Positions 13,400 through 17,222 are shown, counted from the stretch's first letter. The stretch: 64,000 nt of DNA from a virus (IMGVR_UViG_3300001336_000001:42836-106835), one strand, 5' to 3'. Program-made: numbers and translations. The notes: generated by a model not told the origin, from the letters alone.

Positions 13400-13807
13400 T
13401 TAAAAAGGTTTGTATAGTTTCCAATCATCACCTAGAACATATGCGTTATAAAAATAATCTTCATCCCAATCAACATAGTCGTATAATGTTCCTTTAGCGA
13501 AATCGAATATTTGATTATCAAACTCAATCCAATAATGATACATACAATATTCAGAATCTTCTTCACACACATCCATTTGTCCCGACATTCTCTTAGTAAA
13601 ATCAAATTCACTTTCGATTACTTTTGTTATTTCTTGGCAATCACCTTCAGTCTGTGAATCAACAAAACTCTCCCAAGAATTATATTTAAAATAATTAATT
13701 AAATAAGTTTTAATGTTTTCAACTTTTTTTTGTGTTTCTGTTACACTTTCATTGAGTTGTTTAAAGTTTTTAACTTTATCAATCATTTCTCTTATATCTT
13801 TACTCAT
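13400..13807 (-). CDS. leader-family-B protein (MSKDIREMIDKVKNFKQLNE leader), function unknown
   Basis: The first 20 residues are shared with 14991..15422. The leader ends in LNE. Confidence 0.5.
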   Translation of the reverse strand: MSKDIREMIDKVKNFKQLNESVTETQKKVENIKTYLINYFKYNSWESFVDSQTEGDCQEITKVIESEFDFTKRMSGQMDVCEEDSEYCMYHYWIEFDNQIFDFAKGTLYDYVDWDEDYFYNAYVLGDDWKLYKPF

Positions 13808-13814
13808 AATAGTT

Positions 13815-13829
13815 TATATATAAATATTC
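13815..13829 (-). promoter_or_regulatory. TATATATAAATATTC promoter-like motif
   Basis: Exact 15-mer 7 nt upstream of the ATG at 13807. Confidence 0.45.
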
Positions 13830-13914
13830 AATTTTAAAAATTCTACTCAAAATTGTTTTTGTTTTTATCTGTGGTTATAAATTGAGTTTTGTCTGAACCT
13901 CACCGCACCTGTAC

Positions 13915-14027
13915 ATAACAAGGTGTATATGTAATGTGAGTTTCAGTGGTATATTCAAGTTCTGTGGTTAAGTCAAAGTTAAAGTTAGTGTTTCAAATCT
14001 CACACTACATATACACCCAACCGTTAT
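13915..14027. repeat. PeSL-like intergenic imperfect inverted repeat (ATAACAAGGTGTATATGTAATG ... CACTACATATACACCCAACCGTTAT)
   Basis: About 20-bp complementary arms flank a 65-nt spacer. Related copies lie at 14829..14918, 15529..15624, 16315..16443, 16651..16742, 40913..41037 and 41458..41548. Confidence 0.6.
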
Positions 14028-14109
14028 ATTCAATGCTACGTTTCTGCTTCGTATTAAGTTTCATCGTAGTATTCTTTTTATTTTATTTTTTTTCTCCCAC
14101 CACACAAAA

Positions 14110-14709
14110 TTAATAATCACCAACAATAGCATTTATTGGTTTTTCCAATTCTTTATTATTTATTGAATTAATAATTACTTTTGCACCTTTAATTAAAGCA
14201 CATTCCCATTGGTCTTCACCATACCAAATAAATGAACTAAACCCATAAACCCAATCAATATATTTAGGATTTACATCACCTTCCAAAATAAAAGATTTTC
14301 CAGTTTTCATCATTTCTCTGTTTGGATGTTGTTCACCATAAGCCCCAACACCATCTTCCTCAAAAGACCAATGTTTTCCAATATTATTTACATCTAAATC
14401 GTTTATTGAATTTAACATAATCAATCGGTAAATTGTAACACTATTTTGAGTTTTTAATTCATTATATTTGTCAACATATAAGTCAATCAATTCAATATAT
14501 TTATCTCTTGAATATGATGCGTGAATATCATCGGGGTCTTCATTATATGCATCAAACGCTTCTGCAACATCATCAATATTATCATAAGCATATTTTCTTG
14601 CTGTTTCATAATTTGATAAGAAAGAATCTTGGTTATTATATTCCTTCAACATTTCTTGCTCGTTCAAATATTCACGTATAGTAGTCGCTATAAATTTTCT
14701 TAGTTCCAT
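14110..14709 (-). CDS. leader-family-A protein (MELRKFIATTIREYLNE leader), function unknown
   Basis: Shares the 17-aa N-terminus with 16821, 40315, 15669 and 2187. Confidence 0.5.
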   Translation of the reverse strand: MELRKFIATTIREYLNEQEMLKEYNNQDSFLSNYETARKYAYDNIDDVAEAFDAYNEDPDDIHASYSRDKYIELIDLYVDKYNELKTQNSVTIYRLIMLNSINDLDVNNIGKHWSFEEDGVGAYGEQHPNREMMKTGKSFILEGDVNPKYIDWVYGFSSFIWYGEDQWECALIKGAKVIINSINNKELEKPINAIVGDY

Positions 14710-14728
14710 ATTACTAAATAGTTTATTC

Positions 14729-14743
14729 TATATATAAATATTC
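14729..14743 (-). promoter_or_regulatory. TATATATAAATATTC promoter-like motif
   Basis: 19 nt upstream of the ATG at 14709. Confidence 0.45.
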
Positions 14744-14828
14744 AAATTTTAATTTCTTACCCACAAAAAATAAAACAAAAAGGTTTAGTTCTTCGTATCA
14801 AAGTTTATCGGTTAAATCCGCACTGCAT

Positions 14829-14918
14829 ATAACAGCGTATATAAGAAATGGCACAAAAACATTTGTGCTAACTTTCAACATTCTGCAAGTGCCACTTCTC
14901 ATATACGCAAAACGTTAT
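14829..14918. repeat. PeSL-like intergenic inverted repeat
   Basis: ATAACAGCGTATATAAGAAATGGCAC pairs with GTGCCACTTCTCATATACGCAAAACGTTAT. Confidence 0.55.
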
Positions 14919-14990
14919 GCTCCATGCCTTAGTTCAGCGTTTCAATTTGAGTTTTGTGATAAAAAACAAAAAGAATTTTCCCAACGCACT

Positions 14991-15422
14991 TTAAAGAATA
15001 TCTTTATTTATTATTTTAGCATTATTCACACGTCCTTCCCATAAATCAAACATCGTTCCTTGTTTAGCCAAAGATACTCTCCAAATTTCTATTTCACTCA
15101 TTGGTTCTATTTCATAAATATACATTGGACTATCCGACTTAATTTGTGAAGCCCAATATTTTGCTCTATTATAATCAGATGTTATCGAAATTTTTTTACC
15201 ATCTGATTGTTTAAAGTTTATATTTTCTTGTGGGGTAAGTATATCTCCAATATTTAACTCCGTTCGAGAACCGTGATATAATTTTCCTCCGTTAAGTTCA
15301 TTCCAAGTAAATGATTTACCCATTACCTTAACAACTGATGGGTTTATTTCATTAATATCTTCATTTATAAATTGTTTAAAGTTTTTCACTTTATCAATCA
15401 TTTTTCGTATATCTTTGCTCAT
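14991..15422 (-). CDS. leader-family-B protein with a PARP-like (H-Y-E) ADP-ribosyltransferase domain
   Basis: KLYHGSRTELNIGDILTP resembles the PARP H-G-S segment. A Tyr-rich segment and YIYEIE (candidate catalytic Glu) follow. Confidence 0.5.
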   Translation of the reverse strand: MSKDIRKMIDKVKNFKQFINEDINEINPSVVKVMGKSFTWNELNGGKLYHGSRTELNIGDILTPQENINFKQSDGKKISITSDYNRAKYWASQIKSDSPMYIYEIEPMSEIEIWRVSLAKQGTMFDLWEGRVNNAKIINKDIL

Positions 15423-15427
15423 AGTTT

Positions 15428-15442
15428 TATATATAAATATTC
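15428..15442 (-). promoter_or_regulatory. TATATATAAATATTC promoter-like motif
   Basis: Exact 15-mer upstream of the ATG at 15422. Confidence 0.45.
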
Positions 15443-15528
15443 AGATTTAAAATTTCAATCCTAAAATTCTTTTTGTTTTTCTTTCGTATTCCAAATCAAC
15501 ATTATAGGCAAGAAGTCGGCACGAGAGC

Positions 15529-15624
15529 ATAACACGTGCTATAAGCAAGTTTGCCAACAACATTTGTACTAAATTTGAACATTTCTGCAAGGCAAACCTG
15601 CTCATAGCACCATACGTTATAACC
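15529..15624. repeat. PeSL-like intergenic inverted repeat
   Basis: ATAACACGTGCTATAAGCAAGTTTGCC pairs with GGCAAACCTGCTCATAGCACCATACGTTATAACC. Confidence 0.55.
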
Positions 15625-15668
15625 AATACTACATTATACGTTCTAATTGGTATTTTGTTTCAAAACTT

Positions 15669-16205
15669 TTAAAAATTTTCCACCCCTAAATTAATAATTT
15701 TAGCGGATTTTCCATTATAATAAGGTTCTGGAACAATATATTCAATATCGTGTTTTCCGTAAACTTGATTTGTGATTACAATTAAATCTAAATTTCTCCA
15801 TTCTTCTGCTAAATTTTCAGCATCTTCCTGTTCCATACCACCATATTCAACTAAATCATCAATCATATACGATGTGTCCCCACGTAGTAAAGCATCAAAT
15901 GCTTCTTGTATTCCTAAACTATCAAATCTACTTTTACTCAAATCAAAAATTGCTGGATTTTGTGAAATAATTTTTAATTTATAAACATAATCACCCCAAG
16001 ATGTTTGTGGTATATTACTAAAAAACATACCATCTATTCTCGTTGATGAATTTGGTTTTAATTCTATCTTATCAAAATTAAAGTCATCAATTTTTGAATT
16101 AGTTGAGTGGTATGCTATAAATTCTTTATTAGTGTTAACTTGTTCATTCAAAAACTCTCTAATTGTGGTAGCAATAAATTTGCGTAATTTCATATCTTTG
16201 TTCAT
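15669..16205 (-). CDS. leader-family-A protein with an ART-like (H-Y-E) domain
   Basis: MNKDMKLRKFIATTIREFLNE leader. FIAYHSTN, GMFFSNIP and HDIEYIVPE resemble the H-x-S/T, GIYF and E-Y-I-V motifs of PARP-type ARTs. Confidence 0.45.
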   Translation of the reverse strand: MNKDMKLRKFIATTIREFLNEQVNTNKEFIAYHSTNSKIDDFNFDKIELKPNSSTRIDGMFFSNIPQTSWGDYVYKLKIISQNPAIFDLSKSRFDSLGIQEAFDALLRGDTSYMIDDLVEYGGMEQEDAENLAEEWRNLDLIVITNQVYGKHDIEYIVPEPYYNGKSAKIINLGVENF

Positions 16206-16216
16206 ATATTTTACTT

Positions 16217-16231
16217 TATATATAAATATTC
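16217..16231 (-). promoter_or_regulatory. TATATATAAATATTC promoter-like motif
   Basis: 12 nt upstream of the ATG at 16205. Confidence 0.45.
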
Positions 16232-16314
16232 AATTTTAAAATTTCCATCGCACATTTTTAAAAGTTTTTGTTCTGTGTTTCAATTTAGCATTTGTGGTAA
16301 TTTACCGTACTGGT

Positions 16315-16443
16315 TATAACAAGGTGTATATGTAATGATGGTTGTATCTATAATTTCAACATTTTTGGTTTCTATGAAGTTTAGTGGTTAATCAAAGTTT
16401 AGTTCTTTCTATCCACCACTACATATACACCCAACCGTTATAT
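16315..16443. repeat. PeSL-like intergenic inverted repeat
   Basis: Near-identical to the 40913..41037 copy. Confidence 0.6.
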
Positions 16444-16650
16444 TCAAGTTTTTAAAAATGGTAACGACATCTCTACTAATTTAGGTATTGTATTACCAGC
16501 ATCAAAAACAACATTATATTTTCCATCATCAGACATCATCTTAATAAAGTTGTTCTTTTCTTCTTCGGTCATTTCGTGATATACACCACAAATAATTGTT
16601 GTTTTTTCATTTTCCATATAAAGTTTATTTTAATTTTTAAAAACCTAAAT

Positions 16651-16742
16651 ATAACAAGGTGTATAAGAAAGTTTTTTACAAAGGTAGTATAAATTTCATG
16701 ATTTCCAAATAAAAAACCTTCTCATACACCCAGCCGTTATAT
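16651..16742. repeat. PeSL-like intergenic inverted repeat
   Basis: ATAACAAGGTGTATAAGAAAG pairs with CTTCTCATACACCCAGCCGTTATAT. Confidence 0.5.
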
Positions 16743-16820
16743 GCAATGCTAAGTTTGTGCTTAGTATTAAGTTTTGTGGTTATAATCTTTTTGTTTTATT
16801 TTTCCTCCCACCACACAAAA

Positions 16821-17222
16821 TTAAGAATAAATATTTTTATCACCAATATCCCAAGTACCATCATTATTAATAGATTTTATATTTTGTGGTTTTTTTACAA
16901 CCACCTCATATCCTGCTATTATCCCATCTGAATCATCTTCAATTTTAACATATAACTCCATAAGATATTTTCCATGATTTTTAGCAATATCTTTATATGT
17001 CGTTAAGTAAATGCCTGGTCCATTTGCACCATATTTAGATATTTTAAATACATCAAATTTATTATCTGTACCATGATAAACAACTATTGGATTTCCTTGT
17101 TCATCAACCACTTTACTGTTTCCGAACCATACCCAAAAATTATCATTCAATTTATTTTCAATTTCTTGTTCTTCATTCAAATATTCACGTATAGTAGTTG
17201 CTATAAATTTTCTTAGTTCCAT
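16821..17222 (-). CDS. leader-family-A protein with a PARP/Tpt1-like ART domain
   Basis: VVYHGTDNKFDVF (H-G-T), GPGIYLTTY and YLMELYVKIE motifs. Confidence 0.5.
   Translation of the reverse strand: MELRKFIATTIREYLNEEQEIENKLNDNFWVWFGNSKVVDEQGNPIVVYHGTDNKFDVFKISKYGANGPGIYLTTYKDIAKNHGKYLMELYVKIEDDSDGIIAGYEVVVKKPQNIKSINNDGTWDIGDKNIYS

Follow-up and report, generated by a model that had tools for sequence, protein, structure and literature searches.

The 64,000-nucleotide (nt) viral stretch IMGVR_UViG_3300001336_000001:42836-106835, referred to throughout at its full length as the window, carries several families of genes whose products share a short N-terminal leader and have little else in common. 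All nine leader-bearing open reading frames (ORFs) named in a preliminary description of the sequence are present, on the minus strand, with the N-termini given there (Table 1). When the first 40 residues of 91 minus-strand ORFs were compared all against all, pairs within leader families A, B and C scored 46–134 and any other pair at most 40, while the two leader C proteins align over residues 1–40 only; the leaders are thus near-identical within a family and the downstream domains unrelated, as first described. Equally, every leader in the window ends in LNE, INE, LVE, ISE or IKE. One gene model needed correction: the ORF at 2187 does begin with a leader A variant, but its true start is the ATG at 2603 and not the TTG at 2630, because the promoter box that precedes these genes falls inside the longer ORF. 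Read by eye, the leader sequences show charged residues and an amphipathic pattern (e.g. MELRKFIATTIREYLNE) but no hydrophobic stretch. A Sec, Tat or lipoprotein signal peptide was considered and ruled out, there being no hydrophobic core of at least 10 residues after a basic N-terminus.

Table 1. Leader-bearing genes, promoter-like boxes, hairpins and recombinase gene in the window (positions counted from its first nucleotide; aa, amino acids)
Feature	Coordinates	Strand	Gene, cargo or remark
Leader A, MELRKFIATTIREYLNE	14659..14709	-	Gene 14110-14709; cargo of 182 aa without family match
Leader A, MELRKFIATTIREYLNE	17172..17222	-	Gene 16821-17222; cargo ART-PolyVal ADP-ribosyltransferase (PF18760, E 1e-14)
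Leader A, MELRKFIATTIREYLNE	40744..40794	-	Gene 40315-40794; cargo weakly matches DpnI_C-like helix-turn-helix
Leader A variant, MNKDMKLRKFIATTIREFLNE	16143..16205	-	Gene 15669-16205
Leader A variant, MNDLRKFIKKTIREHLVE	2550..2603	-	Gene 2187-2603; cargo ParB_N-like
Leader B, MSKDIREMIDKVKNFKQLNE	13748..13807	-	Gene 13400-13807
Leader B, MSKDIRKMIDKVKNFKQFINE	15360..15422	-	Gene 14991-15422; cargo Arr-ms-type ADP-ribosyltransferase (PF12120, E 2e-8)
Leader C, MMRRFDKIKNIRKANLLAEQRYLKSKGLISE	54673..54765	-	Gene 53785-54765; cargo 'C1', conserved, ~330 aa
Leader C	55830..55919	-	Gene 54810-55919; cargo matches ExoX-like_C / QSregVF_b
Decayed leader C stub, MRRFDKLKKIKKT, then stop	53733..53771	-	
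Promoter-like box, GAATATTTATATATA	13815..13829	-	Invariant; 5-23 nt before ATG
Same box, GAATATTTATATATA	2613-2627, 14729-14743, 15428-15442, 16217-16231, 17242-17256, 40814-40828		
One-mismatch copy of the box	20723-20737		Precedes endolysin gene
Inverted-repeat hairpin, arms TAACGgTTGGGTGTAT... / ...ATACACCTTGTTA	13916..14026	-	~100 nt upstream of box
Further hairpin copies	2665-2789, 14830-14917, 16317-16440, 16652-16739, 40914-41037, 41460-41546		
Xer/IntI-like tyrosine recombinase, 270 aa	12472..13284	-	Directly downstream of last cassette of the 13.4-17.2 kb array

The same leaders occur well beyond the window. A degenerate DNA pattern for the leader A peptide KFIATTIRE, for which we estimate from its degeneracy a chance expectation well below 1, matched 54 stretches in IMG/VR (GC content 24–39%, on contigs of 11 to 501 kb) and 13 contigs from metagenome-assembled genomes, which bear scattered taxonomic labels and look like mis-binned phage DNA. 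Leader A is always N-terminal and is followed by (Y/F)LNE (one LIE and one FNE among 60 copies) and then by unrelated sequence, a layout repeated by leader B in 35 stretches. The exact leader C pattern had no match in IMG/VR and a protein search was used instead, which recovered the C1 cargo as a conserved protein of ~330 aa in more than 85 clusters, together with eight proteins that have only the 30-residue leader C in common. Some C1 homologues lack leader C and carry another N-terminus resembling that of window ORF 55931-56266, which is itself a candidate member of the group. A further leader family (MITKQEDFIRKLIREE…LNE) and several variants of A and B were found among the loci, and a search with a profile of the 44-residue leader region returned short proteins only. 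When the leader-bearing ORFs of the window are aligned with those of about 90 further contigs, the pattern first noticed in the window holds: the same leaders stand before unrelated cargo, and conservation ends at the terminal Glu. Contig L069 (NCBI JBINOA010003474.1, 249 kb) has the leader A variant MKLRKFIATTIYEYLNE and an unusual set of neighbouring genes (PAS/histidine-kinase, ankyrin-repeat, IF3 and thymidylate synthase).

Over 54 distinct leader A copies, synonymous divergence (pS) is 0.45 and non-synonymous divergence (pN) 0.027 (pN/pS 0.06), with three codons in use for Arg (CGT, AGA and CGA), six for Leu and two for Glu. Because synonymous divergence is high and non-synonymous divergence almost nil, it is the amino acids, and hence the leader peptide itself, that are under selection; conservation of the RNA or DNA alone is ruled out by the same codon analysis. 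The YLNE residues, which lay outside the search pattern, are kept in 49–54 of the 54 copies, and in the 13 codons that follow the leader pN is 0.65. Across leader families the terminal motif takes the forms LNE, INE, VNE, LVE, ISE and IKE, conservation halts at its Glu, and in 73 of 87 cases Q, N or S comes next. An AlphaFold2 model of C1 places the leader as an isolated low-confidence helix, followed by a disordered GLISESD segment and then the folded domain.

Behind these leaders the cargo is diverse. The 80 cargoes of at least 60 aa found with leaders A and B fall into 59 BLASTP clusters, 50 of them singletons; four clusters occur with leader A in one phage and with leader B in a second, and the leaders are therefore interchangeable. 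Leader proteins are 65–352 aa long and have at most one recognisable domain each. Pfam searches of 40 cargoes identified ART-PolyVal in nine, the other matches being to GNAT, PARP, DUF3990, ParB_N-like, DpnI_C-like and anthrax-lethal-factor-like (metalloprotease-like) domains. Domains of these types belong to effectors believed to enter the host along with the phage genome (PMC5512222). Phage polyvalent proteins and toxins fused to MuF combine such domains (ART-PolyVal, GNAT, ParB-like, zincin-like) and are likewise presumed to be delivered with the DNA, but they do so as many domains in one giant head-anchored polypeptide, whereas here the proteins are small, separate and leader-tagged (PMC5512222). 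Decayed or truncated leader genes, consisting of the leader, a few codons and a stop, were seen in the window (53733-53771), in L037 (713-799) and in P0022, P0047, P0063 and P0101, which suggests frequent cargo turnover behind retained leaders.

Some further window genes may belong to the same group. A 2H phosphoesterase (LigT/Acb1-like; 21348..21917, minus strand) with the N-terminus MNNLIKNKLREKLNE is a possible member on the basis of weak similarity, and also weakly matches the anti-CBASS protein Acb1. The ORF at 59777-61117 (MKGLIRNKFRVYLLE) is a candidate with weak leader similarity, and the weakly leader-like N-termini of ORFs 11109-11462 and 50096-50812 may mark members or be due to chance.

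The promoter-like box GAATATTTATATATA is the 3' part of a box of ~39 nt, TTTGTGGGTGGAAAATTAAAATTTGAATATTTATATATA, which is present at all seven leader A and B genes of the window and across the loci is found almost only before leader genes (58 A, 5 B, 2 D, plus a number of variants), apart mainly from the endolysin gene. This box is without TAnnTTTG and has a core like that in the upstream regions of head genes, where [AT]TATATA lies within 60 nt of 25 of 28 portal, 56 of 57 protease and 48 of 67 capsid genes, compared to 4.4% of random 60-nt windows. On contig L098, gp21, the scaffold gene, two other late-looking genes and the leader gene have ATATTTAT in common. Of the ten copies of TTATATATA on the coding strand of the window, seven stand at the A and B leader genes, one at the endolysin gene and the remaining two elsewhere. 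Judged by these motifs, the A and B leader genes appear to carry a late-type core, unlike the host-type promoter of presumed early genes. In T4, proteins destined for packaging are produced late in one infection and take effect early in the following one, and a late-type promoter at the A and B genes would fit that pattern.

Three contigs join leaders to head genes. L106 (22.7 kb) contains two leader A genes (one encoding an ART-PolyVal protein) and a Gp23-family capsid gene, upstream of which lies an ORF matching the C-terminus of the protease-scaffold proteins described below. In L037 a leader A stub accompanies a Peptidase_S77 protease-scaffold, which also matches Peptidase_S80, and a protein that aligns full-length with T4 gp23; on L098 a leader B gene occurs together with a separate scaffold gene and with homologues of gp23 and gp21, the latter (6113-6787) being 40% identical to its T4 counterpart. 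The L037 and L098 links came from searching leader loci for head genes; among the matches listed for leaders and for capsid genes there is no contig in common, only shared samples. A gp21-family protease, which the preliminary description proposed looking for in the rest of the genome, is thus present together with a Gp23 capsid protein on leader contigs L037 and L098 and in part on L106, with the head region of the window's own phage lying beyond the 64 kb. The window does have genes in common with capsid-gene loci, namely RNase R (50% identity), an S1-domain protein and three others.

The L106 capsid protein has 251 relatives in IMG/VR, and in their neighbourhoods the gene order is Portal_T4, a protein of 700–800 aa, and then the capsid gene. 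The N-terminal 200 residues of the 700–800-aa protein match Peptidase_S77 (T4 gp21), and residues H85, S140 and D168 of T4 gp21 are invariant in the protease alignment. The hydrophobic-N/x-Glu motif that ends the leaders recurs in these head proteins at places where the T4 proteins are cut or proposed to be cut, in agreement with the original suggestion. Marking the putative cut with an arrow, the N-terminal regions of the capsid proteins contain …HSINE↓N or …HQITE↓N in 15 of 15 cases, …HALNE↓S in L037 and …NMLNE↓V in L098. The protease-scaffold proteins start with MKPVLIVE↓N…L(N/R)E↓N, their protease/scaffold junction (L/I)NE↓S aligns onto ITE↓S of T4 gp21, and their scaffold tails contain up to 13 tandem …EYLAE↓NLDKNI(S/T)Y repeats. 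Compared with shuffled sequence, the tails are enriched 1.6-fold in [LIVMF]xE, 2.4-fold in [LIVMF]NE and 5.6-fold in [LIVMF][NT]E[NQS].

Several minor features of the head loci may be recorded here. The fused tail of the protease (L108-L198, e.g. L108 5552-7942; L037 6219-8252) is a scaffold-like segment of ~500 aa, and each of its 14-residue repeats (EYLAENLDKNISY) holds one putative cleavage site. A 9-residue tag, MK(Y/H)(L/I)(K/R)xF(N/E)E, begins unrelated small proteins encoded by 29 ORFs in 28 head loci (L109-L195); it is close in length to the capsid-targeting sequence (CTS) of T4, stands on an ART-like protein in L109, and often has the late-promoter core just upstream. Directly downstream of the capsid gene come large DUF7487 genes, one or two per locus, whose C-terminal halves are endonuclease-like (L106 14083-17444; L109 10835-14187; L069 8356-9936), an arrangement that recalls the homing endonuclease next to gene 23 in T4.

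We propose that, in a head-assembly system like that of T4, the leaders act as N-terminal capsid-targeting propeptides, a reading to which we give a probability of roughly 0.65. The preliminary description had reached the same interpretation, and it is supported by the alignment of leader-bearing ORFs, the protease, the shared motif, the promoter core and the ADP-ribosyltransferase cargo. The phage group to which the window would belong has a Gp20-type portal, a Gp23-type capsid protein and a gp21-family S77 protease that in most cases is joined to a repeat-rich scaffold. By analogy with the internal proteins and Alt of T4, many small genes coding for a leader and an enzyme would be expressed late in infection from the dedicated late-type promoter, and while the prohead assembles, the leader, as an amphipathic helix, would bind the protein to the scaffold core. 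Next, the prohead protease, which would also cut the capsid propeptide and the scaffold, would cleave behind the terminal Glu (…LNE↓Q/N/S). Released from its leader, the enzyme would remain inside the head and be carried into the next host along with the DNA, to act there before phage gene expression begins.

On this proposal the leaders would be an analogue of the T4 CTS belonging to a different sequence family. The internal proteins of T4 are diverse and only their CTS, MKTYQEFIAE (10.1101/2021.01.19.427310), is conserved (PMC3012670), while all characterised gp21-type proteases cut after Glu in a three-residue motif, T4 Alt for example at ITE-6 (PMC5694885). Both systems place a short N-terminal peptide ending in (L/I)-x-Glu on unrelated small proteins (IPI-III and Alt in T4), and in both the phages concerned encode a protease of the gp21 family along with a Gp23 capsid protein and a Gp20 portal. 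Both also include ADP-ribosyltransferases (compare T4 Alt) and probable anti-defence proteins among the cargo, whose genes cluster in variable regions. The present system differs from T4 in having at least four leader families together in one genome, with a preference for hydrophobic-Asn-Glu, a protease usually fused to the scaffold, and hosts that are probably Bacteroidota; as read from genes alone, it also has dozens of cargo families across contigs, compared to a handful in T4. A second comparison is provided by the giant phages phiKZ, 201phi2-1 and SPN3US, in which a gp21-related protease also cuts after Glu and many packaged proteins are processed, and in which the SPN3US paralogues gp53 and gp54 have identical 15-residue N-termini and are diverged over the rest (PMC5694885). 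The giant-phage propeptides are, however, mostly long, confined to one protein each and cut at S/A/G-x-E, whereas here a few short leaders are used on many cargoes.

A number of observations weigh against capsid targeting. The leaders bear no similarity to MKTYQEFIAE beyond an amphipathic pattern and the tripeptide F-I-A, and at 17–31 residues they are two to three times longer than the T4 CTS (10 residues, 6 in Alt). There are no head genes in the 64-kb window, and physical linkage between leaders and head genes is limited to L106, L037 and L098; within ~2.6 Mb surrounding capsid genes, leaders A, B and C occur in L106 only, about 200 other stretches having no leader within 10 kb. Leader C genes have neither box nor hairpin and lie within an operon beside RNA-metabolism genes, and the late timing proposed for the A and B genes is read from promoter motifs alone. 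No leader was found in cultured phages, either by tblastn with a whole leader protein, a 20-aa leader or C1, or by blastn with the promoter-leader DNA. Finally, equating the INE of the capsid proteins with the Glu65 site of T4 gp23 was tried and dropped, as the alignment is unreliable there and INE does not fall at the T4 site.

Three other explanations have been considered, which are either less well supported than capsid targeting or answer another question. The leader could be an uncleaved docking or regulatory helix for some other partner (RNA polymerase, the ribosome, a phage compartment or a degron protease) with no capsid role, which we regard as unlikely. Selection on the peptide and modularity would suit any model with a common partner, the leader is modelled as an isolated amphipathic helix, and the arrays of leader genes have genes for RNA repair, tRNAs and sigma factors around them, not head genes, capsid-gene neighbourhoods being mostly devoid of leaders. 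Such a helix would nevertheless leave unexplained why a terminal hydrophobic-x-Glu with Q, N or S behind it is common to at least four unrelated families of leaders, why the same motif stands in the capsid N-terminus, the protease termini and the scaffold repeats, and why enzymes of host-takeover type have a late-type promoter. Alternatively, the leader might be a mere passenger, 17–21 codons kept inside the recombining DNA of a portable hairpin-promoter-start cassette. What the A and B genes share goes further than the leader noted in the preliminary description: they have in common a module of ~300 nt made up of hairpin, promoter box and leader, 70–90% identical between contigs that otherwise differ in genes, and box and leader are almost always found together. 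Pairwise comparison of 50 modules (1400 pairs) places the end of homology within 9 nt of the last leader codon in 888 pairs and its start at the hairpin arm in 1005 (at the outer edge in 680, just past the hairpin in 325). Cargo exchange through recombination between modules is plausible. The PeSL cassettes of T4-type phages swap ORFs in this way, with a stem-loop and promoter between variable ORFs and breakpoints at the cassette edges (PMC2839356, PMC4122927), although PeSL promoters are early, of host sigma-70 type, and no conserved coding leader is involved, whereas here the promoter is late-type and 17–21 conserved codons close the module. A passenger role is compatible with cargo exchange but silent on why the peptide exists; the contrast between pS and pN and the varied Arg and Leu codons point to selection on amino acids, leader C is conserved in many phages without box or hairpin, and a shared terminal motif is not predicted, so that we consider this explanation very improbable.

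The remaining possibility concerns how the cassettes move and could coexist with capsid targeting: the recombinase next to the array might act on the hairpins as folded attC-like sites and reshuffle effector cassettes in the manner of an integron. We collected 108 distinct hairpins, with stems of 20–27 bp and size classes of 88 and 124 nt, in which the outer arms (…TAAC…/…GTTA…) and a bulge are conserved while the inner arms and loops vary, the arms remaining complementary. The recombinase has Phage_int_SAM_4 and Phage_integrase domains, and homologues 59–75% identical to it lie near leader genes in eight other loci, making nine with the window; in six, the recombinase gene comes immediately after a leader gene in the same orientation (named loci: window, L002, L012, L016, L017, L040, L042, L043). 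Its best NCBIfam matches are the XerA and integron-integrase models, but below the curated cut-offs (NF040815, 177 bits against 220; TIGR02249, 152 against 265), and at 270 aa it matches the 315-position integron-integrase model in two separate stretches. Each cassette, moreover, has its own promoter, the homology breakpoints would equally suit homologous recombination, and the hairpins could be recombination sites, but also simply terminators, RNA elements or RNA-stabilising structures. Taken together, the recombinase and the attC-like shape of the hairpins suggest site-specific cassette exchange, yet an integron-like system of this kind seems to us distinctly unlikely. On L106, hairpins also lie between small genes without a leader, and in the window the recombinase gene is followed by a sigma-70-family gene (11516-12391).

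If the leaders are packaging tags, they provide a simple sequence rule for recognising injected proteins, including the earliest host-takeover and anti-defence factors, a class for which, to our knowledge, the only other approach is virion proteomics on cultured phages. Already, ~60 unrelated cargo families in uncultured phages, mostly without known function, come to light by this rule. Capsid targeting would also mean that the T4 strategy is widespread and employs several interchangeable tags, and would supply new short tags for loading foreign proteins into capsids, as has been done with the T4 CTS. A joint reading goes further, in which a few leaders act as a sequence-readable address label and an integron-like hairpin and recombinase system reshuffles the effectors behind them; any leader-tagged ORF would then be packed and injected, and the effector repertoire could be read from metagenomes, but we think this combination improbable to much the same degree as the integron-like system on its own.

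The window is probably a piece of a large uncultured phage with a Bacteroidota host. This assignment is made because the Bacteroidetes -7 promoter motif TAnnTTTG precedes many window genes, because a T5 A1-like DNA-transfer protein is 43% identical to the versions in Cellulophaga, Maribacter and Flavobacterium phages, because of a protein with a type IX secretion sorting domain (see below), and because of two large relatives: the nearest deposited genome, an unannotated uncultured phage of 595 kb, and a 310-kb IMG/VR contig (IMGVR_UViG_3300017917_001524), of which the stretch L047 has 92% DNA identity over one leader gene (15669-16205). The only other contig found with the same gene as the window was an 11-kb Logan contig, which stops at the repeat array. 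All sizeable ORFs of the window are on the minus strand and GC content is 27–37%. Other genes encode two sigma factors (11516-12391 and 23902-24453), RNA ligases, a CCA-adding enzyme, an RNase R-like protein, an endolysin and TnpB. ARAGORN predicts 19 tRNA genes in two clusters (27463-29148 and 51292-53319), to which Rfam adds two places, tRNAs being all that the Rfam scan of the window returned.

The type IX secretion C-terminal sorting domain, odd for a phage and pointing to a Bacteroidota host, is found on a 536-aa protein (34105-35715), and a copy of the late-type TTATATATA lies ~100 nt upstream of its gene. The RNase R-like gene (17936-19879) is split into an RNB-domain ORF (18329-19879) and an S1-domain ORF (17936-18322), and the same split is called in Logan contig L001. 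A TnpB / IS605 OrfB-type gene (29868-31049) with a Cas12f-like TNB domain adjoins the first tRNA cluster. Several of the tRNAs are 83–91 nt long, including species other than Ser, Leu and Tyr, with tRNA-Lys(CTT) reaching 91 nt, and these may contain insertions.

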